64,000 nt of DNA from Isurus oxyrinchus (taxonomy: Eukaryota): positions 154,628,001 through 154,692,000 of the forward strand of contig JANJGN010000010.1 in NCBI GenBank assembly GCA_026770705.1. Reading direction: 5' to 3'. A program made the translations under genes and the position numbers. Of the stretch, positions 3,059-55,849 are shown piece after piece (within the stretch, counting starts at the first letter, position 1; each line of letters starts with the position of its first letter). Under the pieces are notes generated by a model. The model was given only the letters and a program-made list of their open reading frames with translations. It was not told the DNA's origin and made no database searches.

Positions 3059-4472
3059 TTCTTATTGTGGTCAGTGGAATCATTTAACACCAAAGGCTGC
3101 AATTTATTTACTGTAACATGATTTTTCTTTAGTCTCACGCTCACACATAGACATAAACACGCCCCAATAGGTAACATCTTACAATCCTGTTAAGGTGTGT
3201 TCGTGATCAAGCACAGAATGCAGAAGACTTGAAATTTGAGTCAGTGGGACTGGGACCTAGAGTTGAGGCCTGTATGAGGTGAACATAACTGAGCGGTTGC
3301 TGTGCAGGAGCACACACACAGAACTCTTATTGAGATGTGGCAGAGCTTTGTGAAGCTGCCTGATCTATCCACAGATGTAAATATTGTACAATTAATTTAT
3401 TGCTACTTTGGCAAATTTCTTTTGTTGTGATGTAAAAATTGGAAGATATGAAATTCCTTGTATGTATATTTTGTTCCATGTTGGTGTGTTTCTGTGTGAC
3501 GCTACACAATAATAAATGTATTTTGTGTCAAAACGATTTGAGTCATAAACAATCTACTTTATGAGATAGGTTCATTAACCAGCTTGTAAGCTTAGGGCTG
3601 CCTACTGTGGCTGGACAGATTCTGGAAGTCGTCGGCAGAAGTGATGTCATGGGAAGCCGGTGGAAGTGATGCCACGGCACAGACTAGTTGCGCTGAATGG
3701 CTCCTCTCTATACTTTATATGGTTCAATGTAATACGTGTGAGACCAGGAGCTGCAAAGATACAGCAGAAAGCAGCTATCTGCTCCATTGAGCTTTTCTAG
3801 CAGGCTGGTCACCTGGTCTCGAGGCCCATCGGCTGTCTCCATCAAAGCGTACACTGATTCAGTGTGACACTGAGTGAGGGGGAATGAACCTGTCTCCACT
3901 AAAATCCACTACTGAGTCTGAACAATTACTGCTCCTGCCAGTTGCTCTCAGGGGATGGAAATCCACAGCACACCACAGTCTGCTCGGTCACCACCAATTC
4001 AATCGGACACTCGTTAATAACACCAATTAATCACTATACCAGCTTCCGGCCAGATTCAGCCGAGCCTCTAACCTTGGCTCATAATCGGCGCTCTTTCCTC
4101 CAGCTCTTCAGCCTGTGTGGGCATCGCTTTGCAGGCCAGAGGGAATATGGTTAGGCAGGGAGCTTGTGCAATTGTATTTAGATCAGTAACATGCCTGTAT
4201 GAGAAGCACCCTGCTAAATATCAACACATTCTCGGGATGACAGGTCTGACTGCTGAGAGACCATGCCAGTTACCCAAAGGAAAACGATGTTAACTGCTGT
4301 AGATAATGAGGGTCGGTGGGTCCAAAATGGAAAGGAAAATTATATGAGGCGTAAAAAAGAGCAACCAACTCGCGATCACATGTTTTTATGCCCAATGCTA
4401 AATTAAAAGTTTAAATTATCCTTAATCACCCTTTCTTGTCCTTAAACAGGAACAGAGGTAATGTGCAGAAGT

Positions 4473-8730: not shown

Positions 8731-9231
8731 TCAATGACCCTTTGTCAAAGCTGATCTGAAGAGGTGTCTGGTAAAAATGTCAATCTGTCTTTGTTTTTCT
8801 AGTGCTGATGGGGAGCTGTGCATTTCTAGCGTTTTCTGTTATGCCAGATTGCAAGCATCTGTGTTTTTTAAGCTCATGTATCATTCACATTTCTGCACAG
8901 AAGGAGGCCAGTCTGGCACATGTCAGTTGGTAGCTCTTTTAATCAGATTTTTCAGTGTATCATCTGAGGTCCTTCATTTTCAATTATTTAACCACTTGAC
9001 CATAGTCAAGCAATAAAATTGGGGCAAGAAAGGCTATAATAAAGACCCCGTTCTATATTTGTAAGTTTTTTGGGTGTGCCATACTGTAGACATCACACTT
9101 TGTTACACATGCAAAACCATCTGACGGCTAATAGGATTATGGCTTGGGTTACTATAGAAAACCATATTATATCATCTGCCAGTGCTTCACAGATGGGTTA
9201 CCAACTCTAGCTGGACATATTCCTGGAGATT

Positions 9232-10860
9232 GTCCAGTCTCCGATCTGAAGAGCACACACCGGCGAGGAATCTAAGAAATTTAACAATAAAACAAGTTCC
9301 AGTGGAACTGGGACATGCTCATCATTTTCTTGTAAAAACAAACGACTAAGCACATCGGCGTTTGCAATCTGAATGCCAGGCCTATGTATGAAAGTGTATT
9401 TGTACGCTGCCAGAATTAAAGCCCTATTAGTATTTCTGTATCTTCTCGCTCGCGCAGACTTTAATCTCAGCTTTCTCTTTGACTTCACTATTGGCCAAAC
9501 TTCTCTTCAGATGCAAGTTCAAATTGTCTGAGCTCAGTGTCTGAGTCTCCCAAGATTTCAGTATCTGTCTGCTTCTTAGAAAACTCTGCGACTTTTGCCT
9601 CCAAAGCCTCTTTGGCTTCATTTAGCTGATTCTTCAGCTCTTCCATCTCTTTTTTGTATTTATTTGCTGCTTCCTGGAAAATTGAGCATTGTTGTGTCTT
9701 CTCTGCCAACTCGTTCTTCAGTTTAGTCAGAGAAGTGCTGAATTCTTTCTGTTTCTCTTCATACTTTTCCAGAGATATAAACTTTGACCTGAGGGAATCT
9801 TGCAGTGTGTGAAGGTCTTTCAGCAGGTTTCCTTTTTCCCTGTGAGGGTTGCTCACCTCATCTCGAACTCTGTCATCAAACAGTATCTCTTTGAGTTCCT
9901 TCTGCTGTTCTTCCAGGCTTTGGCTTAAGAGAGTCTGCATTTCTTCGGGTTGTGGAGTCTTTACACACTCTCTTTTGAAAGCAGGAACACTTCCAGCCTC
10001 CTTTTGGAATCCCATCAAGGTTAATTTCCCTTTGCCAATTTCACCCTAAAAGGCTTTGTCCTCTGCCTCTCAATACCAACACTTCTGCTTTGCTGGTTGG
10101 CTTCCATAGTGCACAGTTACTCTGCTTATGCCTTTCACTTGAATGTCTTCACCTGTACATGTTTTTAGTTTGGCAGCTGTTTCTTCTAAACTTAATTGAT
10201 GTTCATCATTATTCAGATATCTGAAGGTATGTTCCCCAATTACTGTAGTGGAAGCGCCCGTGTCCATTTCCATTCTAACAGGTTTGCCATTTACTTTCAC
10301 TGTGACAAATATTGGTTCTGTCTTTCCAACTTTCAGGTTAAACAATGAGTAAATGTCTGAATTTGTTGTTTCCGGCTCTTCTACATTGTAGGTTTCATTG
10401 GGCTTCTTCTTTTGTTTACAGCCTGTTTGGATCTTTCCTTGCACTATATGTCCATTTCTGTGACAATAGTAGTATTCAATTTTGTTAAACAGCCAATCAC
10501 GAAAAGACTGCTTGTTGCCACCTCTATTAAAATTATTCTTCGATTTCACTGCTCTTATAGCACTTTCCATGGCCAACGCTATCACTAGCGCCTTCTTGAA
10601 ATTCAGATTTACTTCAGACAATAATCTTTTCTGGATTGTGTCCTCTTTCACATAGACAGTTCTTAAGTGAAAACATTAAGTTTATTTACAATATCCTCAG
10701 CAGCAAGTATAGGTGTGTTTTCAACTCCAGCTCTATCTCTACCATGACTGCTGAGGTGGCCTGTGCTACTCTCCTATTGGCTACTACAGATCATGTGATC
10801 TTTCCTAGCAAGTATTATTCTCACTTAAATGAAAGTGTTCCAAACAACTGAATAAACCTC
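9232..10860 (-). mobile_element. Degenerate Gypsy LTR element (LTR-like 10640-10860, gag knuckle, protease, RNase H end) with an internal foreign insert
   Basis: IQKRLLSE, CHRNGH, MDTGAS protease, SLLG*NW, then ALILAAYKY..HRPG..NADVLSRL. Confidence 0.85.
9490..10010 (-). pseudogene. Captured coiled-coil host gene fragment, UACA-like
   Basis: 176-aa heptad-rich ORF; LSQS..Q..EIL..EV..H.E....K.L.T.Q..K...EE..F...LK..L.E.TQ pattern recalls the UACA coiled coil (from memory). Confidence 0.65.
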
Positions 10861-10897: not shown

Positions 10898-13700
10898 TTT
10901 AAAATTCATTCACAGGATGTGGGCTTCGCTGGCTGGGCCAGCATTTATTGCCCATCCCTAGTTGCCCTTGAGAAGGTGGTGGTGAGCTGCCTTCTTAAAC
11001 CGCTGCAGTCCATGTGGTGTAGGTACACCCACAGTGCTGATAGGGAAGGAGTTCCAGGATTTTGACCCAGCAACAGTGAAGGAACAGCAATATATTTTCA
11101 AGTCAGGATGGTGAGTGACTTGGAGGGGAACTTGCAGTTGGTGGTGTTCCCATCTATGGGCTGCCCTTGTCCTTCTAGATGGTAGCGGTCAATGGTTTGG
11201 AAGGTGCTGCCTAAGGAGCCTTGGTGAATTCCTGCACTGCATCTTGTAGATGGTACACTACTGTGCCTTGGTGGTGGAGGGAGTGAATGTTTGTGGATGG
11301 GGTGCCAATCCAGTGGGCTGCTTTGTCCTAGATGGTGTAAAGCTTCTTCAGTGTTGTGGGAGCTGCACTCATCCAGGCATGTGGGGAGTATTCCATCACA
11401 CTCCTGACTTATGCCTTGTAGATGGTGGACAGGCTTTGGGGAGTCAGGAGCTGAGTTAATCGTCACAGGATTCCAAGCCTCTGACCTGCTCTTGTAGTCA
11501 TAGTATTTATATGACCGGTCCAGTTCAGTTTCTGATCAATGATCATCTCCAGGGTGTTGATCAAAGGGGATTCAGTGATGGTAATGCCATTGAACGTCAA
11601 GGGGCGATGGTTAGATTGTCTCTGGTTGGAGATGGTCATTGCCTGGCACTTGTGTGGCATAAATGTTACTTGCCACTTGTCAGCCCAAGCCTGGATATTG
11701 TCCAGGTCTTGCTGCATTTGGACATGGACTGCTTCAGTATCTGAGGAGTCGCGAATGGTGCTGAACATTGTGCAATCATCAGCGAACATCCTCACTTCTG
11801 ACCTTATGATGGAAGGAAGGTCATTGATGAAGCAGCTGAAGTTGGTATGTCCGAGGACACTACTCTGAGGAACTCCTGCAGTGATGTCCTGGAACTGAGA
11901 TGATTGACTTCCAACAACTACAACCATCTTCCTTTGTGCTAGGTATGAATCCAAGCAGCGGAGAGCTTTCTCCCTGATTCTCATTGACTCCAGTTTTGCT
12001 AGGGCTCCTTGATGCCACACTTGGTCAAATGTGGCCTTGATGTCAAGGGCAGTCACTCTCACCTCACCTCGGGAGTTCAGCTCTTTTGTCTATGTTTGAA
12101 CCAAGGCTGTAATGAGGTCAGCAGCTGAGAGGCCCTGGCGGAACCCAAACTGGGTGTCAGCAAGTAGATTATTGCTAAGCAAGTGCTGCTTGGTAGCTCT
12201 GTTGATGACCCCTTCCATTACTTTACTGATGATGAAGAATAGACTGATGAGGCAGTAATTGGCCAGTTGGATTTGTCCTACTTTTTGTGTACAGGACATA
12301 CCTGGGCAATTGTCCACATAGACAGGTAGGTGCCAGTGTTGTAGCTGTACTGGAACAGCTTGGCTAGGGGCGCAGCAAGTTCTGGAGCATAAATATTTGG
12401 TACTATTGCTGGAATATTGTCAGGCCCCATAGTCTTTGCACTATCCAGTGCCTTCAACCATTTCTTGATATCACGTGGAGTGAATCGAATTGGCTAAAGA
12501 CTGGCAACTGTGATGCTGGGGACCTCTGGAGGAGGCCGAGATGGATCTTCTGGCTGAAGATTGTGGCAAATGATTCAGCCTTATCTTTTGTACTGATTTG
12601 CTGGGCTCCCCCATCATTGAGGATGGGGATATTTGTGGAGCCTCCTCTTCCAGTGAGTTGTTTAATTGTCCACCACCATTCACGACCTCATCTGGCAGGA
12701 TTGAAGAGCTCAGATCTGATCCGTTGGTTGTGGGATCGCTTAGCTCTGTCTATCACTTGCTGCTCATGCTGTTTGGCATACAAGTAATCTTGTGTTATAA
12801 CTTCATCAGGTTGACACCTCATTTTCAGTTATGCCTGGTGCTGTTCCTGGCATGCTCTCCTGCACTCTTCATTGAACCAGGGTTGATCCCCTGGTTTGAT
12901 GGTAATGGTAGAGTGAGGGATATGCTGGGCCATGAGGTTACAGATTGTGTTCGAGTACAATTTTGCTGCTGCTAATGGCCCACAGCACTTCATACCTGCC
13001 CAGTCTGAGTTGATAGATCTGTTCAAAATCTATCCTATTTAGCACGGTGGTAGTGCCACACAATATGATGGAGGGTATCCTCAATATGAAGGTAAGACTT
13101 TGTCTCCACAATGACTGTGTGGTAGTCACTCCTACTGATATTGTCATGGACAGATGCATCTGTGACAGGCAGGTTGGTGAGGATGAGGTCAAGTATGTTT
13201 TTCCCTCTTGTTGGTTCCCTCACCACCTGCTGCGGACCTAGTCTAGCAGCTATGTCCTTTAGGACTCAGCCAGCTTGATCAGTAGTGATGCTACCAAGCC
13301 ACTCTTGGTGATGGGCATTGAAGTCCCCCACCCAGTGTACATTTGGCGCCCTTGCCATCCTCAGTGGTGTTCAACATGGAGGAGCATTGATTCATCAGCT
13401 GAGGGAGGGCAGTACATGGTAACCAGCTGGAAGTTTCCTTGCCCATGTTTGACCTGATGCCATGAGACTTCATGGGGTCCGGAGTCGATGTTGAGGACTC
13501 CTAGGACAACTCTCTCCCAACTGTATACCGCTGTGCCGCTACCTCTGCTGTCTCTGTCCTGCCGGTTGGACAAGTCATACCCAGGGGTGGCAGTGGTGGT
13601 GTCTGGGACATTATCTGTAAGATGCGAATATGACCATGTCAGATTGTTGCGCCCAATTTTGACACTTGCCCCCAGATGTTAGTAAGGAGGACTTTGCCAT
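10898..13700 (-). mobile_element. CR1-clade LINE, 5'-truncated and frameshifted (endonuclease + RT + 3' tail)
   Basis: PTRGKNILDL, SD(Y)H, ALDIKATFD, GVPQSSVLG, FADD motifs; (gaat)n tail. Confidence 0.92.
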
Positions 13701-15409: not shown

Positions 15410-17841
15410 TGTTTTGAGTTCAAAGACTGCAGTGCTTTCTCTGTGTCTGTCTCAGTGAGAAGTCTTTATTGAACTGATTTTAAAATGGCAGCTTACAGGG
15501 CTTCCCACATGGCACAGATCACATGACTACAGCAAGCTAGATAGGACATGTATTACTGTTGCATTTCATAACAAGCAAAAGATCCAAGCATTCCCTTTTC
15601 CCTAATGAACAGAAGACACATTTGCATGTTCAATCATGTGTAACTGTGAGTTACTCAAGTTACCCACTATACACCCACTGTTCTCATGCATTGTTAAGTG
15701 TTTGTTCCCCTTGTCAATCTCTTCATTTGCATTGCACACATAGTCTTTAAGTCATGCAGGTCTCTTAATGGTACACTTATGTATTGTCATTGACTGCTCA
15801 TCTAGGTGATGTTCCTTGTCTGGAGAGTGTCATTCCCGTGGCACTTGTTGCCACGGTACCTGTTGTTATTCCATTTCCATTTTTGGGACTCTTGAGCCTC
15901 TGGGAATGATGGTTGTTCTGTACTTGTACAGCTGGTGAGATCCCATCTTCTTGACCGGCCAAATGCAGTAAAGGAACAGCTTTGCTAGTCTTTCGTATAT
16001 GCCTGCATTCATCTCGTTCACCTCCACCGCATACGATCGAGGTGACAATTTCCCTATGTGTGTCCCAAGTTGCCATGTGGGCTGACTCCTGTTGAGCGCG
16101 TTGAAGGTTTGTACCCTGACTGGCTCTCCAATGCTCAGCTCTGGCATCCTTATCCAAATGAAATTTGGCTTTCTGCCATTTCACCCTGAATTTTTACACT
16201 CATGCCTGTTACCACTTTTGTTTTCAATAGCTTTTTTGCTATTGGAAGAATAGTTTGTGTGTAGCATGATGTTAGTCTTTGGACTGGACTACTTTCCATG
16301 CCTTCAGCTGGTGTGTTTCTCTGCTCAAGGATTGCCTTGTCTACACCTGTGCTAGATTTGCTCAATTTCTTGATGATTCCATTGGCGATTTTTACTGCCG
16401 CATCAGCCTTTCCATTCGACTGGGGATAGTGCGGAGATGATGTGTAGTGTTGAATTTCCCAGTCATTCATGAATTGGCTGAATTCTTCACTCATGAACTG
16501 AGGGCCATTGTCACTCATCACAATGTCTGGAATGTCACAATAATTGAAGTGTGCTTTCAGGTATTCTACTATTTCTCCTGTCATTGTTGAAGTCAGTGGG
16601 TCTAATTCCCAGTAGTCAGAATAGTAGTTGACAGTGATAAGATAATCACTTTCTGCTAGAGTGAAGAAGTCTACTCCCAGCTTCATCAATGGTCTGTCTG
16701 GAATGTCATGCATCATCAACAGCTCTCCAGCTTTTTACCTTGGTACTCATTACAAGCACCACACTGACCTATGCAGTCTTTAATTTCTTTGCTCATGTTT
16801 GGCCAGTAGAGCACTGCTCTTGCCTTCCTCAATCCTTCTTTTCCTCTGTATGATGTTCTCTGCAGTATTTGCATCCTGCCCTTTCTCTGCAATTGCTCTG
16901 CTCTTTCGGCCTGTTATGTCTCTCAGCCTAATGTATCTACTGGTCTGGTCTGCCATACATGTGTTCTAACTGACATTTTACAAACTCCGTATTTTCACAC
17001 ATGTCTATTACTTTCCTGAGTGTAAGTTTCTCCTTTTTAAGTAGACTTTCTCTCACTGAGGGGTCTCATATGCCTACGAGTGTTATATCTTTATTCAGAT
17101 CATCTTTTAGCTGTCCAAATTCACATGATTCTGCAAGCCATGTTATCGCAGTTACATACTGTTCAATGGGTTCTTTTTCCCCTTGAGCTCTAGTGTAGAA
17201 TAGAGAGTGTTCACAAGTTATGTTCACTCGGGCGTCAAAGCGTTCATTCAAGACTTTCAAAATCTCTGCTGTCTGTTTTCTTTGTCATTGGTTAGATTTA
17301 GGTTGGTATACAATTTGTAGCAGTCCCTCCACAGCAGTGTTAGAAGTGTGGCTACTCTTATCAGTTCCAGCTTATTAATTAAGTCTGTTGCCAGCACATA
17401 GTTTTGCCATTGCAAGTGGAAAAACTGCCAGTTCAGCCACATTTTGCCTTTCATTTTGACTGGAGCTGGGAGGGGGAAGTTTATTGCCATGTTCACTTAT
17501 CCAGTGTTTTTTTGCAGTCCTGCCTTTGATATGCATTTGCTTTTCATTGTCTCTTTTTAACAGCTTTTAGCAGATTTGAACATTTCTATGTGCCTTACTG
17601 CCTGACCTGTGTCTTCTCTGCAAAATGTCCAGGATTTCAAAACCCTATTTTATCTCCACTTGCTGACACCATGTTTCAAGGTCAAAGACTGCAGCGCTTT
17701 CTCAATGTTTTTCTCAGTGAGAAGTCTTTATTGAACTTATCTTAAGATGGTATCTTACTGAGCTTCCTGCATGGCAGAAGCCACAGGGCTACAGCAAGCC
17801 AGATAAGATATGTAGTACTGTCGCATTTAAAAACTCAAACA
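15410..17841 (-). mobile_element. Internally deleted Gypsy LTR retrotransposon (LTRs about 15410-15590 and 17672-17841; gag; integrase)
   Basis: Paired LTRs; tRNA-Leu-type PBS TGGTGTCAG(C)AAGTGG at 17671-17656; PPT agggaaaagggaa; integrase SDNGPQF/HYPQSNG; near-TSD cccc/ccac. Confidence 0.9.
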
Positions 17842-34885: not shown

Positions 34886-34983
34886 AACATGCACAGCATC
34901 TAATTTCAATGCATGTCGACTCTGTGAAGCACTTTGTAACAATTTTAGTTAAAGAGTATCATAGGATTCTCCTCATTGCTTAC

Positions 34984-35310
34984 CCTCTACGTTTATTTGG
35001 ACATAACGTTTGATGGGTTTCTCCAAGCTGGTGTGCTCAACGCGACATGTGTAGGTAGCACCATTGTCCCTGAGGGAGGCCGTGAACCTGAAGAAGCTGG
35101 TCATATTGTAGGTGCCGTCCATGTTCCTCCTGTGGGGCGAGAAGATGACGTTGGTCATGTAGACGGGCAGCATGTGCCCCTCGCCCTGCTGCCGCAGCCA
35201 CTTCACTGTTACATCAAGTGGGTAATACCGCTCCGCCTTACAGGTCAGCTTCTCTTCGTCCCCTTCCTTAACAGAAAGTGAATTAGGGCTCATTAGGACA
35301 ATGGGCGACT
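34984..35310 (-). CDS. TAPBPL: Tapasin-family gene, exon 5 (IgC1 domain)
   Basis: LTC..YYPLDV.V.W..HRRNMDGTYN..YTCRVEHTSL; 327 nt, ttgcag acceptor, G|gtaag donor. Confidence 0.95.
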
Positions 35311-35831
35311 CTGCAAAGAAAGTATCGAATGACTTTATCGCAATAAGTTACGACAACTGGACATACGTTCAAATTTTATCAGCTTTTTAACACTTAGGAT
35401 TTGCAGCTTTTAATCCCTTTAAATGCAAGTAAATTGGAATAATAGCCTTCCAATATGAACATGACCCTGAAGCAACGAGTAACCAATCAGGGAACCACCA
35501 ATTTAAATTTTTTTTAAGTAATAAAAATAATCCCTTTAAATAATTTTTCCTCCCTACAGCTCTTTTGATAGTGATAATTTCACATACCGTCATGTGTTAC
35601 ACACATACACACTTTAAGAAGCTGTTGAAAAGAGCATGTATTTAATGTATCTGCAAGGAATGTGTTTGAGAGTGGCAGGACTCAGACTGTAATACCCATT
35701 TGTGAAGGCTCAGCATTTGTTCAGTTAGCAATACGGGAAAGCAGCATTCCTACATCATCTCTCTGAGTTTGCATTGCTAAAATTGGTTTACTCGCCCCTA
35801 CAGCAGAAGCACAGTCCAAGCCCACAACCAT

Positions 35832-36720
35832 AAAAACAAACAAAACTGCGGATGCTGGAAATCCAAAACAAAAACAGAATTACCTGGAAAAACTCAGCAG
35901 GTCTGGCAGCATCGGCGGAGAAGAAAAGAGTTGACGTTTCGAGTCCTCATGACCCTTCGACAGAACTTGATTTCAAGTCCAAGAAAGAGTTGAAATATAA
36001 GCTGGTTTAAGGTGTGTGGGAGGGGGGGGGGGGGGGGGGCGGAGAGAGAGAGAGAGACAGAGGTGCTTGTGTAGACAAACAAGCAGTGATAGAAGCAGAT
36101 CATCAAAAGATGTCAGTGACAATGGGACAAAAGAACACATAGGTGTTAAAGTTAAAGTTGGTGATATTATCTAAACGAATGTGCTAATTAAGAATGGATG
36201 GTAGGGCACTCAAGGTACAGCTCTAGTGGGGGTGGGGGCAGCATAAAAGATTTTAAAATATTTAAAAATAATGGAAATAGGTGGGAAAAGAAAAATCTAT
36301 AAAATTTATAGGGAAAAAAAAGGGAAAAAAAGGGGGAAACAGAAAGGGGGTGGGGATGGGGGAGGGAGCTTATGACCTAAAGTTATTGAATTCAATATTC
36401 AGACCGGAAGGCTGTAAGGTGCCTAGTCGGAAGATGAGGTGTTGTTCCTCCAGTTTGCGTTGGGCTTCACTGGAACAATGCAGTAAGCCAAGGACAGACA
36501 TGTGGGCAAGAGAGCAGGGTGGAGTGTTAAAATGGCAAGCGACAGGGAGGTTTGGGTCATTCTTGCGGACAGACCACAGGTGTTCTGCAAAGCGGTCGCC
36601 CAGTTTACGTTTGGTCTCTCCAATGTAGAGGAGACCACATTGGGAGCAACGAATGCAGTAGACTAAGTTGGGGGAAATGCAAGTGAAATGCTGCTTCACT
36701 TGAAAGGAGTGTTTGGGTCC
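35832..36720 (-). mobile_element. Penelope-like element, family 1, 3' part (GIY-YIG endonuclease + pLTR)
   Basis: LVYCIRCSQCGLLYIGETKRKLGDRFAEH..LEEQHLIFRLGTLQPSGLN. Confidence 0.92.
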
Positions 36721-37764
36721 ACAACCACATGGGTCCACAAAAGTGCAGGACAAAGGAGCCTAATTGAGCAATGCTAAATGGCAGAGGATGAACACTTCTG
36801 CCCCGAGATCTAAACGCAATGAATCTGAAGGTGCCTTTAATCTTGTGTAGCATTTAAATAGGGGCCTTTCCAGCAGCTCGTTATCCAAAATCACTGTTCC
36901 ACCCCTGATAGTGTTCAATTCATATACACTGCTGGTGTGTACAGATCAGCAGCGGTGATGTAAGCACAAGTAAAATAATTGTCTAAGGTGGCTAGATGGC
37001 AAATGGCATCTGAGGTTTTGCCCACCTCACCGCACTCCCCACTGTTCCACTCTAGACCTAACCCTAGGAGACCTCCCCATGAAATTCAGCTCCTTGCACT
37101 CTACTGTTCTGGGTGCATACAGGACTTGCTTTTTTAATTGCATCACCATACTGTCCAGACATTGAATGTAGTGAGTCTGTAGTTATTCTCATGTATCTCT
37201 CTAACTTACCCTTTGTTAATTCATAGAATCATTTGGCCCATCGTACTTGTGTTGGCTCATAGGATGAACTATCCCATTAGCCCCTCTCCCCTGTTCCATT
37301 CCATTCATTGCCTACTTCTGAGGGTAAGTTCACTGATCTTGTATTCCCAGTGGGAAGGTGTGCACTCTTAAAACATAGCTTCCAGCTGGTGCTTCAGAAT
37401 CACAGAACTTACCCTGTGATGGACATGTTATTGGCCAATGTCCAACAACTTTATCATTGCTAAATTTCATTCCATTAAATGTAAACCTTCACTCAGTGAT
37501 CTGCCTTTGAGTCAAAAGTTTATCTGTTCAACCCTCCCCTCAGGCTCTTGAATATGCAGTTGAGGATTATGTTTCAGTGTGGTATTGAGGGAGTGCTGCA
37601 GTGTCAAGGGTGTGGTCTTTCGGATGATACATTAAGCAGAGGCCCCTGTCTGCCTTCTGAGACAGAAGTTAGGAATGGCACTATCTGAATAACAGCAGAA
37701 CAACAGGCTGACTAGCTTAGCGTCGAGTCAACATTTATCCCTCAACCAACAGTGTTAAAAGCCA

Positions 37765-38525
37765 GAACAAAAACAGAATTACCTGGAAAAACTCAGCAGG
37801 TCTGGCAGCATCGGCAGAGATTTGACGTTTCGAGTCCTCATGACTCTTCCACAGAACTGAGTGAATGTAAGGAGAAGGCTGAAATATAAGCTGGTTTAAG
37901 GTTGGGGGGGATGTGTGTGTGTGGGGTGGGGGAGAGAAGTGGGGAGGGGGGTGGTGTGCTTGTAGGGACAAGCAAGCAGTGATAGGAGCAGATAATCAAA
38001 AGATGTCACAGACAAAAGAACAAAAGAACACAGAGGTGCTGAAGGTGGTGATATTATCTAAATGAATGTGCTAATTAAGAATGGATGATAAGGGCACTCA
38101 AGGTACAGCTCTAGTGGGGATGGGGTGGAAAGGCTAGCAGGGCATAAAAGATTTAAAAATAATGGAAATAGGTGGGAAAAGAAAAATCTATATAAATTAT
38201 TGGAAAAAACAAAAGGAAGGGGGAAGAAACAGAAAGGGGGTGGGGATGGAGGAGGGAGTTCAAGCTCTAAAGTTGTTGAATTCAATATTCAGTCCGGAAG
38301 GCTGTAAAGTGCCTAGTCGGAATATGAGGTGCTGTTCCTCCAGATTACGTTGAGCTTCACTGGAACAATGCAGCAAGCCAAGGACAGACATGTGGACATG
38401 AGAGCAAGGTGGAGCATTAAAATGGCAAGCGACAGGGAGGTATGGGTCATTCTTGCGGACAGACCGCAGGTGTTCTGCGAAGCGGTCGTCCAGTTTACGT
38501 TTGGTCTCTCCAATGTAGAGGTGAC
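37765..38525 (-). mobile_element. Penelope-like family 1 fragment
   Basis: YIGETKR...GLNIEF plus pLTR. Confidence 0.9.
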
Positions 38526-38589
38526 CACCGATTATATGGGCAGTTATTTCATTAGTATTTGTGGGATCATGCTGTGTGCTGATTTTTCT

Positions 38590-38968
38590 TTGTTCTTTCA
38601 GGGGTGTGGGTGTAGCTGGCAAGGCCAGTATTTGTTGTCTATCCCTAAGTGCTATTGAACTGAGTGGCTTGCTAGGCCATTTCAGAGGGCATTTAGAAGT
38701 CAACCACATTGCTGTGGGTCTGGAAGCACAGATGGCCAGGTCAGGTAAGGATGGCAGATTTCCTTCCCTAAAGGGCATTGGTGAACCAGATGGACTTTTA
38801 CAACAATCGATAATAGTTGTCTTGGTCACCATTACTGAGACTAGCTTTCAATTCCAGATTTATTAACTGAATTCAAATTCCACCAGCTGTTGTGGTGGGA
38901 TTTGAACCCATGTCCCCAGAACATTAGCCTGGTCCTCTGGGTTATTAGTGCAGCGAGTGGCTACCACA
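38590..38968 (-). mobile_element. Same SINE family, near full length
   Basis: Head, core and tail present. Confidence 0.8.
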
Positions 38969-39844
38969 TAACGAGAGTGACTATAATTGAAAGGTATTGC
39001 ATTTTCTCTGAAGCTGTAGGAGGTCTCGCGGACATGAAAGTAACTATATAAATGCAAATTCTTTCTGAATTGAATTTGCAGGCTGCAAAGCCAATTTCTT
39101 CTGCGAACGTTTTGCTGAATCCTTTGTCTTTACTGTTCTTACTTTAGTGTGGTCAGCAAATCTGATGTTAGGCTTCCAAGTAATTTATGTGGATGAAAAA
39201 AAAAACACAGGAAACAGAGAACCGGCCCCTAAGGGCCTCAGTTTAACGCCTACCGTCAGATTTGGCATTGTACCTCTGTTAATAGTATGTTAATTATATT
39301 GTTGGGACACATAGGTGGAGGTCATTGTTTAATTAAGTACTTTGAACACGTATAAATAGGGGAGAAGAGTGAGACGGAACAAAATCAATAAACTCGCTTG
39401 ATAAAGAAAAACTCTGTGTCTTAGTTTCCACCTCACCAACCAGCTTGGATCCTGTCAACAACCTTCCAAGAGGAATATCTCAGATAGAGTTGTAAAATAC
39501 TCTGGGACACAAGACCAAGAGTAGGCCATTTAGTCCCACTACAATAAACAGCAACAACCTGGTTCTCAGTTGAGCTGAATTCTAATCACGTTGATTGCTG
39601 ACCATCAGGGTGAAGGTTAAAGAAGATTTTGTCAGTGTATGTATTCAGCTGGTTGTAGATTGAAATAATTAATCCAGGCACTACCTCTGAAACAGAAGCC
39701 CTGTCTTATTTCAGGAGGTAAAACGGGCAAAATGGCCCTTTCAATTTCCTGCTGATTTCTACACTGTTCTGTCACCTAAATATATTCAATTTCCCGACCC
39801 ATTCATTTTCTATGTTGATTAATTTACCAGATTCAGTATCTTAC

Positions 39845-40183
39845 CCATAATCTCCACCTCAATGGTGTGCATTCCAAAGAGCGGAGGGACATATACAGAG
39901 CAAGTGTAGGATCCCTCATCTTTAATGCCAATATTTCTTATGCGGAGGGAAGCATTTCCATTCTTGATCTGGTCCATGAACACTTCAACTCCTTTCTCCA
40001 TGTGTTCGACCTGCTCATGTCGCCCATTGTAGGAAAACAATTTCCTCTTGTTCCCTTTGTGCTGATATCGCCAGTCAATGTTAAAGTCTGTGCTGTGATC
40101 AATTTTGTAGCCACAGTCCAGAACTAGGTCTTGCTTCAGTTTGGTTCTGATCGATGGGGTGCTGGTGTGAACAATGTAGGTCA
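39845..40183 (-). CDS. TAPBPL: Tapasin-family gene, exon 4 (IgV-like domain)
   Basis: VLDC..WRYQHKG..GNASL..DEGSYTCSV; 339 nt, phase 1-1, G|gtaag donor. Confidence 0.95.
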
Positions 40184-40320
40184 CTAACAAGTAAAAAGGA
40201 AAGGTCATTATGTTGTATTTCACAACAGTTAATCACTATTACTAACTCAGATAAAACGACTTGAAATTGTATTTTCTTCATAAGCTCGTCACTTCAGAAA
40301 TCCAGTCACATGATCTTTAT

Positions 40321-40454
40321 AAAAACAAAAAACTGCGGATGCTGGAAATCCAAAACAAAAACAGAATTACCTGGAAAAACTCAGCAGGTCTGGCAGCATC
40401 AAATGATGCTGCCAGACCTGCTGAGTTTTTCCAGGTAATTCTGTTTTTGTGTTG
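40321..40454. mobile_element. Penelope-tail hairpin insert with 14-bp TSD
   Basis: cacatgatctttat at 40307-40320 and 40455-40468. Confidence 0.88.
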
Positions 40455-40620
40455 CACATGATCTTTATGTTGCATGGGACTTTTTTGTTCACTTGCATTA
40501 TCATTGGAATTGATGAATTTTTAACACTCTAGTGGAAGGCAAATATTATCCATAACACACGTACATTTTTGCAGCACTCTCCCTAAAATTATACTGGGCT
40601 GGTCAGCATTTGAACGTTAC

Positions 40621-40911
40621 CTTGAACTGACAGGGTGTCTGTATCGCCAATGGCTGAATCTTCACCATCGGTTTTTGCTTCACTGTTCTTAGCCTGCTGG
40701 CTATCGGGCGCTTCTATTTTCCTCATGAAGCTGGTTGCAGTGAACCTGCTACTTAAAAGTTTTATAGTCACTGTGAACCAAATGTCCTTAATGGTCTCCT
40801 TACCCTGGTGGGGCCAGGGTACATGGATGCCATGGGTGGAATATCTGCTAATTTCACATCCCAATTTGTCCGGTGGCTCATTTACATACTGGAAAATATC
40901 TAATGAAGACT
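40621..40911 (-). CDS. TAPBPL: Tapasin-family gene, exon 3 (N domain, CEISRY...WP...WFTVT)
   Basis: tttacag acceptor, G|gtaacg donor, 291 nt open; CEISRY is a tapasin-family signature. Confidence 0.92.
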
Positions 40912-41424
40912 CTGTAAATAAGGAGGAAAATTCACATAATAATTAAACAGCAAGTTAATAGAAAATGATTCAAATCACTCGCAAAAAGAACGGTCCCAAT
41001 ACTAAACACGCACATTTCTCTGATCCTCCTAAGTTGCAAGATTTTACAAATCTTTCCATTGTACCTTGTGATATAAAGAAAAACAACCTGGGCATTCATA
41101 TATTGAAATATTATTCTTAAAACCTGAACTGCCTCCTTTTAAACTGAAAATCTACCTCTCTCAGTCAATGGTATCAACATTACCAATTCCATTTGACCAG
41201 CTGATTTTAAAAGGCTGACTTAGGGAGCTAAAGAACCAATAAACGTTGTCTCTCCCAAAAGACTTCTTCAAACTAATTACTGGCCATTACATCCAATTTT
41301 TTTTTGAAACAGGTCACCCTTACTGTGCAAACTAGCCCTGTCCCCATGAGCCTCAAGCCATGTGCACATCTGTTTTTTTTCCTCTCAATGAATTCTTAGC
41401 CAAACCTTGTCCTCTATGGTCCTG

Positions 41425-50193: not shown

Positions 50194-50661
50194 TCATTTG
50201 AATTGATTTACTCGATTCTTTTGTGTAGCTTCTTCAGCTTTACTCCGTCTCCACTCACAAATGTCTGCAAAGTCACAAGACCGACATTTCCACGCTTCCT
50301 CAATATCCACACCCATGGCCTCCCTCTGGCCCTTCCAGAAGGAGCTATAATGCTTCAGCTCACTTTTAACCCACTCCCCTTCAAAGGACACCACTTCTGT
50401 TCCGATCACAGAGGCATCTGCCTGGTAACAGTATTCTATCTTCATGGTGTCGACGCTGGGGATCTCTGCGTAGGTCAGATTTAGCAACATTAAATCCAGA
50501 AGGTCGCCAAATGTGTTTATGGTAAATCCCACCTTCTGAGCATGCACGCGAATCTCTGACCCCAACGGCTGATCCGTCCGTAGGTGAAGATGGTGAGTGA
50601 AGGTGTCCTTGTTCAGTTGGCCTTTGATCATAGCCTCAAAGAGAAGTTTGTATATACTAAC
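50194..50661 (-). CDS. EXO5: EXO5 coding exon 6 (VSIYKLLF...EAWKCRSCDFADICEWR...stop)
   Basis: C-terminal CxxC..C Fe-S ligands; ttttatcaccag acceptor; TGA at 50194. Confidence 0.95.
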   Translation of the reverse strand, partial: VSIYKLLFEAMIKGQLNKDTFTHHLHLRTDQPLGSEIRVHAQKVGFTINTFGDLLDLMLLNLTYAEIPSVDTMKIEYCYQADASVIGTEVVSFEGEWVKSELKHYSSFWKGQREAMGVDIEEAWKCRSCDFADICEWRRSKAEEATQKNRVNQFK

Positions 50662-51785
50662 CTGGTGATAAAAGGGATTAAGTTTTACTTCATGATGGTA
50701 ACACAGAGACAAGATCACTCCAACATCGGTTTGCTATGCATTTCACACTAGAGGTCATCACTGGTTCTCTAGTTTTGTGGCACAGATTGTGCCTAGACTA
50801 TAAAGCATGAAAAACAAACTGACATTACAGCAACCCATAACTTCTTCCCATTTGCACTGTAGTAAGATCAAGCCAAGACGTTTTGTCACTTAATTTGCTG
50901 AATGTGATTTAAACAGAATGCAACAGCACCTAGAAATAAATACTGACATTTATTGTCATTGAAACATCTTGGAGGATTCCACTTTTAAAGAATGCTAGAA
51001 TGTTAAGTGGAGAAACATGGCAACCATTCTGCAGCAGCAGTGTCCAACAAACATAAATGAAAAACTGGTTGAGGGAGGAATATTGATCAGTGTAACAAAA
51101 ATGAAACAGTATTTCAATCAGGTAGCTGTCACATTCAGTAACAATGCTTACATGCTTAAAAGCCAGCAAATGATAGAAATATTATGAGCTTTTTCAATTG
51201 ATTTCTATGGTTACAGGCTTAGAGAGAAACCTAGCCACATTTCAAATACAGGCACAGTGCAAAATGATTCCATTATGTGTGTAATAGCCAATTATTTTCA
51301 AATCCAAGTATCAAGTCATTTGAATCCAACAAGTACTAGCAGCCACTCGATGAATATCAATCCCGAGTGGTGTTTTATCAAACTGAATAGAATCTACATA
51401 GAAAGATACAGTAGAGTAACAAGAAAGGTAGAGGTAGAGGTTACAAGAACGTACATAAAGGTTATCTATACAGCAATACCTCAAGATATAAATTTTTTTG
51501 TTGTTTTCCTTTCAAGGATTTAAATAATAAAATTTACTGTATATATTATACTATTGTTACAGAATGGTATGATATGAGAATTTATCAAACTATTAAGAAA
51601 CCTAAAATGAGGTCTGAGGTGATGCTGCTTTTGAAGAATCATCTTGTGGAAGCAATAAGGTATTTTCTAATAGTTAAACAATTAACAGAGTTCTTTTGTT
51701 TGTTATCTTGACAACGCTTATTTAGGTAAGTGAAGACACTTTTAAAGGCACAGGGAATTGGGAATCATCAGAGATTGATCTAATA

Positions 51786-52248
51786 CTGTGGTTCTCAAGC
51801 TGGGGTCTATTAGAGATTTTCTAGAAAATCTACAAGCAAGCAAATGAGTGGCAGCCAGAGTGAGCTTGGTGCGAGACGGGAGACTGGAGTGGAGTGTGGA
51901 AACCACATGTGTGATGCAGAAGGGGCTGGCTATCTCACCTAGGAGTAAGTGTGCATGGAGGAGCACTGAGTGGCACAAAGTTCACGAGGTAGACCTGCAG
52001 TTACCAAGGCTGCTGATAGGCATCAGAGTTCAGCCTTGTACAAGGGAGGGGAGGTTTTTTTAAAAATATTGAAGTGGACAGACACATCTCATTGATATCT
52101 GCAAGCAAATACTTGTTTTCTTAAAAGCATTTTGAAACACTGTACATGCACAACTTGCATAATCATTTTATAATTCAGATGGGAGACCATAATTATCGAT
52201 ACATTTGAAAAAGGGCCCTTCAACCAATAAGGTTTCAGAACCATTGGC
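51786..52248. mobile_element. Decayed hAT/Charlie-like MITE
   Basis: gtggttctcaa ... tcagaaccattg ends. Confidence 0.4.
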
Positions 52249-52826
52249 TGAACACAGAACAAGAAATATAGAATGGAACCAAAAACAGCAATAAAAGTGA
52301 ATATGTTTCTTTGCCCCGAGATTTTTAATGTCCAACTGAACTACTGGTCCTCACAGATAGCACTTTAGTTTGACATCTCAGCTAATGGCACCTCCACTAA
52401 CACAACAGACTGTGTATTAGACCTTGTCTGTGGATTCGAGTCCTAAGGAGAGGCTTGAACCTAAAACCTTCTGATCCAAAGGCTAGAGGGCTGCCAAGTA
52501 AGCCTGAGGGAAAAGTCCATGAAAATACTTCCATATTTCAAATCCACAATGAAGTGCAAAGGCTCTTTAAACTAAATTGTTAGACTGTAGAGTTAGTGTT
52601 GTGTACATATGACCCTACTGTGCAGTGGTACAAAATGTAATCAATGATCTATATGCTTTACAAATGCAACAGGCTATGTTCGTCCAAAGAGCTTTGGGAA
52701 TGACCAGTCATTTTTGTATGATAGGAAACATTGTGCAAAAGCTTGATGTCAATATTTTAATAAAGCAGCTTAAGTGAGTCAGTGAAAACTTATTCATTCC
52801 AAATGATTCTTGCCCCAGCCACTTAC

Positions 52827-52999
52827 TTGTAAGTGATGACTCTTTTTTTGGGCTGCACTGGGATATGTTCGCTGACCACGAGTTTTCAGTTCACGTAATT
52901 CCAGTTCACCTTTAGAATTATAGCACAGTTCATCAACAACACCAACTACAAAAATCCCCTCCAGCTCTCCAAACACCGGCAGCTCTCGTACACGTTCTC
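52827..52999 (-). CDS. EXO5: EXO5 coding exon 5 (RELPVFG..VGVVDEL..ELKTR..Q, RecB-type nuclease core)
   Basis: Catalytic D..ELK motifs; CAA|gtaagt donor. Confidence 0.95.
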
Positions 53000-53434
53000 C
53001 TATACAACACAGAACCATATCACTTCTTTAGATATACTGTACAGCTGAATGGTCAGCCACAATGACATTCACTACTAAAGCAGTCAGTTAGAGAGTTTGA
53101 GTTCTATCTGGCCCATCACTCAAATCTGACAGCCATTCAGCTAGATTTAGACTATTTGGAGCTGAATGTCTAGGTTGTTCATCTCACCTTGTGAAACTTG
53201 CCACATTCTGAAGAGGCAAACACAGCAGCTTTAAAAAAAAATCACTCTCCATCCAGCAAGTCAGGCAAACTGGGTGATGCTGTGGAAGATGCTACAAACC
53301 AAATTTCCTAGCTTAAGAAGTCTGAGGTGCTTTGTGGCAAAAATAAGAAAAATATTGAACATATTAAAATACTTTATGATGAAAAACAAATCCCCTACCT
53401 TTAACGTAACTACCTGCTAGTGTCTTTTTCATAC

Positions 53435-53539
53435 CTGCTTGCAAGAACTGGATCATTGAGAGAAGATTAAGCATCTTTACAGCCCAGTTATCTTCCCGGC
53501 TCTCTACATTTATTGGGACAATGTCCTGGACCTCCAACT
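53435..53539 (-). CDS. EXO5: EXO5 coding exon 4 ([20 protein letters not shown])
   Basis: 105 nt, phase 1-1, conserved ED.WA motif. Confidence 0.92.
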
Positions 53540-54689
53540 CTAAAACAGAAGAGGCAGAAATACACTTTTATCAACACATCCCCCTCAACACTGTGTATAC
53601 AATACACAACAGAATTAACGCTCCCATGCAAACCATACTGGATAGACACAGGAGTTTGAAAAGCATATAGTTTAAAGGCAGGGATTTCAATCCTAGCCCA
53701 CTTCATTCGGTAAGTGCTCATTCTTAAACTACTATCAGGAGTACTGGTTCAATTAAACCTCAACAGAAGTCTTGTGCCTTCCAAGGCACTGTTACAAGAA
53801 ATTAAAATAAGTGGGTAAATGGTGACTCATTCAGACGCAGAAGATCCAGCTTTTGAATTCTCCTCTAATCAGATTATCATTGGCAAAATAAACTGGAAAA
53901 TATGCAAATGTGGATAGGATTAGGTTTGGCTGTGACACAGTTGACAACAAAGGAACAAGCCAATACTAACTACCTAGGCTTGGAAGTAAACATGATCATT
54001 GAACCCTCAGCACATCAGTGCCTTCAAAAGAAGAGCATAGAGGAGAGAAAACCAAAAACACTAAACGAAAAGTTAACCTACGTATGAACTGCATACCTAG
54101 GAAACCATGGGGAGGGCATGAGAGCACATGAATACAACTATTATTTAGGAATATTCTTGTTTTTTTCTGTAGACCTGATGAGGTTCAGTCAATGCTTCAA
54201 TAGCCTTTGTACTTTGTGGTACCACTGACTGGTACAAGCTTACAAGATTAAGAAACCTGTTGATGCAGAGCACAAGATCGTTTAAATTTAGAACTGAAAA
54301 TTAAAAGTGACACCTGCAAATCTGGAGAGCATATTTATGGAGCTTCATTTTAAAAGAACGTCAACTGCCAACAATTTAATGGTGCTCGTGAAAGTCGACA
54401 TTTTATTTACTTGGAAGTACAGGAAAACTACTTCTCTCCCCCATTCCAATTATTAAAGCTATTTTACTTCTCTATTGATTATCCCAGTGACACCAGCCAA
54501 CTCTTGTCTGGCGGAGCAGGGGTGGAAAAATACATACAATATGAAAGCAGGGTGCTGTGGGTCTGGCTTTTAGGAGCTATGCATGAATGACATTTGCCCT
54601 TACTAGTTTTTTTTTCCTTCTAGGAAGCACCTTATTTCCTGTTTACTGGTTTCCCAAAGGGACTGTGATCTAAAAAGCACAGCATAGGA

Positions 54690-55068
54690 TTACATTGGAT
54701 ATACAACACAACCAGTCCATGCCAGCATTTATGTTGCACTCAAGACTCCTCCCATTTTTCCTCATCTAAATCATCTTAATCCTCTAATCCCTTCTCCCTC
54801 ATGTGCTTGTCTAGCCTCCCCTTAAAAGCATTTACACTATACACTTCAATTACTTGCTGTGGTAGCGAGTTCCACATTCTCACCACACTTTAGGTAAAGA
54901 AGTTTCTTCTAAATTCCCTATTGGATTTCTTGGCGATTTATCTCAAATCGATGTCCAGTCATGCTCTTCCCCACAAGAAGAAACATGCTCTCTGTATCCA
55001 CTCTATCAAAACCTTTCAGAATTTTAAAGAACTCTATTAGGTCACCCCTCAGTCTTCTTTTTTTCAAG
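54690..55068 (-). mobile_element. Decayed CR1/HER1-like 3' end
   Basis: Reverse complement of ctgaggggtgacctaatagag...agaaacttctttacc. Confidence 0.6.
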
Positions 55069-55174
55069 CATGTGGAAACATTGGCACAGATCTGCACCTT
55101 AGCACCATGTGGTTTCTGGCTACTTCACTATGATGCTGGGCCACAAGCAACATTTCATTCCAGTGTAACGTTAC

Positions 55175-55440
55175 CTCTTGCCAGGTGTAGACAGCTACCA
55201 GCTTTCACAACTGGAACTTCATCTCGTAGCTGCTGAATGTGTGGTAGTTCCATCCCATAAACCACTTGCTGCTCGCACCAAGCCTGTCGACTCAGGTCAG
55301 TCACACTCAGGTGCTTTCGCCCAAACCGCTCCAGCGGAATCCTTCCATCGCACTTTCTCCTTTTAGTGCTGCTGCCCTCACACAGTGGGTCACTCTCCTG
55401 CTCCGATACATTCTGTTGATTGGAGGATTGCTCATTTGCA
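55175..55440 (-). CDS. EXO5: EXO5 coding exon 3 (PLERF..LSVTDL..QAWCEQQ..GSCLHLAR)
   Basis: EXO5 motif carrying the first Fe-S cysteine; ctctcccag acceptor, G|gtaacg donor. Confidence 0.93.
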
Positions 55441-55849
55441 CTGGGAGAGAAAGGTTGTTTGCCCAATTTACTTTTCAATGACAGAGACAGAAGAAATTTA
55501 AGCTAAAAACACCTCAGTATCAATTTCTCCTTTTAATGGTAAAACAGGAAATGCCTGTAATTAATGACCCGCTGTCAAAACCAGGGTGGCCTGTGGCTTT
55601 GAAGCATGCAATTACAGGGAATGGATTTTAATTTGTGGATTGTTAAACCTGAAACAGATCTGTTTTTCTCCAAAATAGTCATTTCACCCCAAAAGCATAA
55701 AAGGATTTCACAAGAACTCCCATTGTCAGTGCTAGTGTTTAGTAGGGGCACCATCATCAAGAGTGCATTAAAAAAACATTACTGGAACAGCCCTAAAGAT
55801 AAACACATTGCACGGTGAGATATTCAGCTATAAAAGCCACAGAAGTACA

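Follow-up and report, generated by a model that had tools for sequence, protein, structure and literature searches.

A Gypsy retrotransposon family of Isurus oxyrinchus with a UACA-derived coiled-coil cassette in place of reverse transcriptase

The window analysed here, 64,000 nucleotides of Isurus oxyrinchus DNA, contains on its minus strand a dead copy of a Gypsy retrotransposon. In this element a cassette from the host gene UACA stands in place of the reverse transcriptase (RT). We consider it probable that the cassette came from an mRNA-capturing LTR lineage, was kept by selection and was moved by an RT-bearing parent.

The window copy and the origin of its cassette

Read on the minus strand, the element runs from the end of gag through protease and an open coiled-coil frame to the tail of RNase H. 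Its parts are listed below.

10654..10821, minus strand: partial 5' LTR, positions 41-208 of the 256-bp family LTR, 86% identical to the LTR of copy L047
10307..10652, minus strand: what remains of gag, with another deletion (10553) and, near 10465, a degraded zinc knuckle
10012..10306, minus strand: aspartic protease and its end (Pfam PF13650/PF13975), frame broken near 10080 and 10012
9978..10011, minus strand: 5' junction, a diverged remnant of the protease-RT linker that reads W..FQ..A...P.L
9630..9977, minus strand: UACA piece 1, nt 1513-1862 of the large-exon open frame, 75% identical over 212 nt (E 1e-37 locally)
9527..9638, minus strand: UACA piece 2, nt 2304-2415, 71% identical over 82 nt
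9455..9526, minus strand: non-UACA tail from the donor lineage, aligning with donor copies past the UACA edge
9230..9424, minus strand: RNase H tail and connector, 78-88% identical to parent copies, element cut at 9230

The sequence-only reading had placed the borders of the conventional element where we find them. The protease reading ends SLLG*NWQREINLD at about 10015, and RNase H resumes at 9422 with ALILAAY..NADVLSRL. The protease is recognized by Pfam (Asp_protease_2, E 3e-7, 10306-10148). Between these domains lies a stop-free frame of 185 codons from stop to stop (10045-9488), or the 176 codons counted earlier if taken from 10015, and its predicted structure model consists of three long helices and of helices only. 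Against a full-length Gypsy polyprotein the window aligned with residues 61-304 and 765-838 and gave zero matches to the RT part, which bears out the claim that this stretch is not RT. RT and most of RNase H had been described as missing; they are indeed absent, although the loss measured on parent copies is about 1.3 kb and not 1.5 kb.

The copy is broken. It retains part of one LTR, which also matches both ends of other family copies, and it carries two internal deletions; behind the LTR, the primer site and the front half of gag are deleted. At 9230 the element is cut off, without integrase or 3' LTR. One contig of an independent assembly, which may stem from the same animal, bridges this cut without difference. 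The linker motif at the 5' junction is common to family and parent copies, with poor alignment at the DNA level. Just upstream of the partial LTR ends a decayed LINE on the minus strand (10904-13700; RT ORF, very high copy). Elsewhere in the window, and also on the minus strand, lie an integrase fragment of a different Gypsy element (15798-16734), exons with C1-set and V-set Ig domains from a gene that we take to be tapasin-like (34973-40946), and exons of EXO5 (50194-55502; Pfam Exo5, E 1e-25).

A profile built from ten copies of the insert matched one white shark gene model and 15 mammalian proteins, and all 15 of the latter are UACA. In a wider search of 1.84 billion proteins the best full-length match was ray UACA (E 6e-18); the other hits were two basking shark models and one unnamed fragment. 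A protein search with the single insert sequence missed UACA, Pfam returned generic coiled-coil matches only, and the ESM Atlas gave no usable match for the insert or the donor tail. The native gene lies on contig C25 of the same genome (G000:C25), with ordinary introns and a 911-codon open exon (G000:C25:4881186-4883918). An ankyrin search of the genome had missed this locus. The window insert is 70-75% identical to native shark UACA and consists of nt 1513-1862 and 2304-2415 followed by about 70 nt of non-UACA sequence. Piece 1 averages 70% identity to the native exon across the family (351 nt). The two pieces are joined in frame via a 9-nt repeat (9638-9630) across a 450-nt offset, which is the modal offset of this joint (39 of 45 junctions). 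The earlier assignment to UACA thus stands for 451 nt (9977-9527) and not for the whole of the roughly 580 bp. Searches of the UACA, TPR and C19 regions (see below) gave zero matches to the non-UACA tail. On the strength of these alignments, we conclude that the cassette derives from UACA. Since the UACA piece sits inside one exon, it cannot by itself show a route through RNA.

The family and its RT-bearing parent

When the genome was searched with positions 9440-10060, all 40 scored matches spanned both junctions and covered at least 607 of the 621 bases, the 39 other copies at 86-91% identity. The junctions are therefore neither chance products nor assembly artefacts, and the multicopy family suspected by the sequence-only reading exists. 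Among 30 fetched copies, 23 share the window layout, six keep the end of RT and the whole of RNase H, and one is interrupted. A 26-mer from the insert has 357 exact occurrences in the genome (control 0) and is present in 16 of 30 sampled copies, and we therefore estimate about 670-1,580 family copies. The 3,518-4,106 candidates returned by five DNA searches were dropped as copy counts because the figures were too alike, and summed contig depth was dismissed as a measure of copy number.

Full-length family copies have LTR pairs of 256 bp (TG..CA, 81-89% alike), a primer site and a purine tract. Exact 5-bp target duplications flank L047 and L166, near-exact ones flank L050 and L043, and none are evident in the other full-length copies. 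A search with the RNase H region recovered 30 loci, 23 with RT, six with UACA and one interrupted; two of the RT-bearing loci (L167 and L168) share the family LTR. Parent copies align in order with a PR-RT-RH-IN polyprotein. In family copies PR, RH and IN retain this order, and the RT core is absent. No fixed difference separates family from parent in 258 nt of protease or in 711 nt of integrase. The window family is a non-autonomous Ty3/Gypsy LTR element, as claimed before, with an RT-bearing autonomous parent in the same genome. One parent copy, without the UACA insert, lies antisense at G000:C25:4830000-4841022, some 19 kb upstream of the first UACA exon located, and is possibly intronic.

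All copies seen are old and broken; the age of the bursts follows from the LTR divergence. No long intact chimeric frame was found in 221 loci, and the window copy is broken as well; the intact frame at a conserved locus that marks a domesticated gene was not seen among them. In copies that keep the RT end, this end is joined through a short A-rich overlap and lies mostly in the -1 frame behind an A run (323 columns; four of seven copies at in-frame lengths). Programmed frameshifting at the A run was rejected as unsupported, because the run comes from the parent sequence. The nearest relatives of the window copy, L002, L003 and L004 (89-91%), lie less than 1.2 Mb away (G000:C10:154.5-155.8 Mb) and group with it in the tree; they have no flanks in common with it, and their similarity may reflect local hopping or gene conversion between neighbours. 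The insert is covered, at about 10% divergence, by contigs from DNA runs of two organisms and from two presumed RNA runs. The RNA-labelled runs gave only short diverged contigs, and the label itself is a guess, so that these matches speak for presence and not for expression.

The donor lineage and the hand-over of the cassette

The other matches to the UACA exon in this genome all fall within nt 865-2416 and are 80-84% identical to the host gene, above the 70% of the window family. Their deletions are nested in one another, and the flanks at both edges are shared, which argues that UACA was captured once. These donor copies belong to an LTR element with a primer site and a purine tract, whose LTRs do not align with those of the window family. 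In the donor, 1,551 nt of UACA are combined with 270 nt from a second coiled-coil gene and with spliced exons of TPR, all in sense and in one frame. Its first ORF, which we liken to gag, is followed by UACA in 29 of 30 loci and by pol in none; the ORF had no match in Pfam or in a profile of 1,300-aa Gypsy polyproteins. Neither an autonomous partner nor a pre-capture form of the donor was found in the 30 loci with the gag-like ORF.

Behind UACA, the donor continues with a 90-nt orphan piece, followed by 270 nt from a large exon of contig C19 and by TPR exons from contig C16. The C19 piece is present in 30 of 30 donor copies (77-84% identical). Its source (C19:47786986-47785259) has 576 open codons, received no name from Pfam or PDB, and may be ninein. 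Sources of the 90-nt piece and of a 160-nt piece before UACA were not found. The identity of the TPR part is given by Pfam (PF25481, E 1e-16). Five GT-AG introns of TPR (0.8-8.5 kb) are absent from the donor: the spliced joints occur in 10, 13, 13, 7 and 1 of 30 copies, and the unspliced forms in none. This observation shows that the donor captured mRNA, on the evidence of the TPR exons, the UACA and C19 pieces each lying inside one exon. The natural frames read through each joint in single donor copies, and every named donor piece encodes a coiled coil. In one donor subfamily (L032, L062, L063, L069, L072, L079, L084 and L087) the UACA pieces are permuted, with 2337-2415 before 930-2278. Beside or within another donor element lies a copy, free of introns, of a gene for a small Sm-like protein (L190:2434-2760), which we take to be LSM8 and which is perhaps a further capture.

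The window family and the donor share the 1862/2304 joint, the exact edge at 2415 and the non-UACA tail. We computed a tree of the cassette (351 nt, insertions dropped, rooted on the native gene) from 16 of 30 family copies, 20 of the 34 nearest donors and 27 older copies. Family and nearest donors form one clade with a bootstrap value of 100, nested inside the older copies; with only 351 nt, the long branch of the family (0.2 changes per site on its stem) could be drawn to the nearest group. Four hybrid copies combine the family LTR and the 3' half of the family with a donor-type front, and hence the two lineages recombined more than once. In a hybrid subtype (L122, L123, L137 and L140) short tandem repeats have grown inside the cassette. 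The cassette and the adjoining linker are far diverged, while protease and integrase equal those of the parent without a fixed difference, which suggests that the backbone is younger than the cassette it carries.

These data bear on the proposal of the sequence-only reading that the window element itself transduced a host mRNA. The position of the cassette between parent-type protease and RT/RNase H, with short A-rich overlaps, would suit a direct and independent capture of the UACA message in the window family itself. Against it stand the joint, the edge and the tail shared with the donor, and the grouping with the donor at a bootstrap value of 100. We regard this possibility as exceedingly improbable and close to refuted. 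Capture of host mRNA did occur, as the spliced TPR exons of the donor attest; most likely the window family received second-hand, from a different LTR lineage, a UACA piece that was already deleted and diverged.

Both families extend beyond one species, since of two basking shark gene models built of cassettes (168 and 177 aa) one is 70% identical to the window insert and another is closer to the donor type. A white shark model (LOC121291255, P0001) joins two MHC class I-like halves by a piece of gag and the UACA cassette of the window family; this fusion is probably a prediction artefact.

Constraint on the cassette and what it may mean

By column occupancy, gag, protease and cassette share one frame (531 and 516 columns), and the RNase H tail behind the cassette is out of frame. 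Changes fixed on the family stem were scored at sites where the older copies agree with the native gene. The stem carries 41 nonsynonymous (N) and 25 synonymous (S) changes, compared with 168/40 among rare variants (p 0.003). The UACA frame alone is significantly low; the other five frames give ratios of 0.56-2.25, none of them significantly low. Transitions alone remain significant (p 0.015), transversions alone do not (p 0.12). The donor stem shows a similar deficit (29/21 versus 926/255, p 0.0015), also in the parts that the window family lacks (16/16 versus 496/129, p 0.0003), but not on the short segment alone (p 0.40). N/S on the two family stems is 0.26-0.45 of neutral (p 0.0003-0.014), a moderate effect drawn from 50-80 changes, and neither stem has a fixed stop. 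All ten deletion types are in frame, but this says little, since the repeats of the exon are in frame in 68-80% of cases. A test of shared variants within the family gave p 0.03 for the insert, p 5e-5 for gag and p 0.10 for protease; recurrent transitions could affect it, and we give it little weight. On balance, these counts favour constraint on the cassette at the level of amino acids.

The same history could have unfolded with the cassette as a neutral stuffer that kept the length of the RNA or an open frame, the synonymous excess being mutation bias or sampling. Cassette lengths do shrink steadily by deletion, the repeats within the exon themselves favour in-frame joints, the family stem still fixed about 40-50 amino-acid changes, and the transversion-only test is not significant. 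However, a need for an open frame would remove only stops, which make up about 7% of the N changes among rare variants, and not half of N; moreover, the signal is frame-specific, persists when only transitions are counted and appears again on an independent stem. We therefore judge neutrality unlikely, though it deserves real weight. Less probable still is that the constraint was that of a host gene, a domesticated chimeric locus which served as the source of the copies. Long stems with few surviving side branches would fit a single long-lived source, and the basking shark models made of cassettes could be read in this way. On the other hand, there is no intact long frame among the 221 loci, the backbone tracks the autonomous parent, and gag and integrase show a similar synonymous excess among shared variants, as expected of transposing masters.

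The reading that we prefer runs as follows. In the pol-less donor, the gag-like ORF is followed in sense and in frame by one stretch of UACA whose edges are fixed, part of a second coiled-coil gene and joined TPR exons, and nested in-frame deletions shortened the UACA part. Its 3' part may then have moved into pol of an unrelated Gypsy lineage, as the shared joint, the shared tail and the tree suggest, likely by recombination between co-packaged RNAs with template switching as the route. The backbone around the older cassette would have been renewed by recombination with the active parent, whereas the second deletion, by which the subtype of the window lost what was left of RT and most of RNase H, is plain from the copies. 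Selection probably preserved the cassette within a Gag fusion protein, in a family presumably moved by the RT-bearing parent. The constraint would have acted on transposing master copies, and the simplest cause may be that a Gag-linked coiled coil helped the masters' own RNA into particles. More tentatively, and with less than even confidence, we surmise that a shark LTR lineage recruited UACA, TPR and ninein-like rods as a functional appendage of Gag, that selection on the element itself preserved them over a long period, and that the module was then passed to an unrelated Gypsy lineage, where it displaced RT.

Capture of host genes by LTR elements is already known; what is unusual here is the scale, the relay between lineages and the apparent selection. 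The accessible part of Tan et al. 2016 (PMC5131818) describes LTR-mediated retrocopies of animals in which a piece of host mRNA replaces part of the internal ORF between the LTRs, with short shared sequence at the joints; several genes can be combined, and the chimeras can move again as non-autonomous elements. The counts given there are five for zebrafish, four for chicken, eight for mouse and three for human, with nine retrocopies at 18 insertion sites in flies. The shark capture is likewise intron-less, as shown for the donor TPR exons. In contrast to that handful per genome, the shark family has hundreds to thousands of copies in several nested subfamilies, its cassette moved between two unrelated LTR lineages, and its stems show a synonymous excess. 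FAM8A1 in HERV-K, a vertebrate host gene inside an LTR element, is called a processed pseudogene in the same text, which in this part does not report selection on the captured frame. In maize Bs1, an LTR element, three host gene pieces are fused into a new frame according to the part of PMC13317346 available to us. The Bs1 donors are unrelated enzymes, whereas all identified donors in the shark are long coiled-coil proteins, and the shark element is of high copy number, dead and relayed to a second lineage. Template switching between co-packaged LTR elements also gave rise to a new subfamily in BARE-2 and Veju (PMC13317346, same part); unlike these, the shark lineages pass on a host-derived coding cassette. 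Bdelloid LTR elements share additional coding modules between diverse retroelements, but as excerpted (PMC5408684) these modules are ORF3s of their own, in elements which retain pol, and are traced to no host gene, whereas the shark module replaces pol and its host exons lie in the same genome. We found no paper linking UACA with retrotransposons or transposable elements in sharks or cartilaginous fishes, and none linking shark LTR elements with TPR and ninein. Likewise, amplification, hand-over between lineages and apparent selection of a coiled coil were not found in print, in a search outside which lay repeat libraries and most subscription journals.

Capture of host genes by LTR elements of vertebrates has so far appeared as single or few-copy accidents. 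In this 5-Gb shark genome a captured exon forms the centre of large families; all intermediates survive, and the assembly also contains the parent genes and the autonomous partner. Copies of the cassette already appear as shark gene models, which is a warning for annotation. The system makes it testable by sequence whether captured host coding sequence is selected for the benefit of the element itself, and how modules pass between LTR lineages. If our tentative proposal of recruited rods is true, parasites of a retrotransposon use rods of the host to secure a position inside the particle or within the cell, where the nuclear pore or the centrosome might be such sites.
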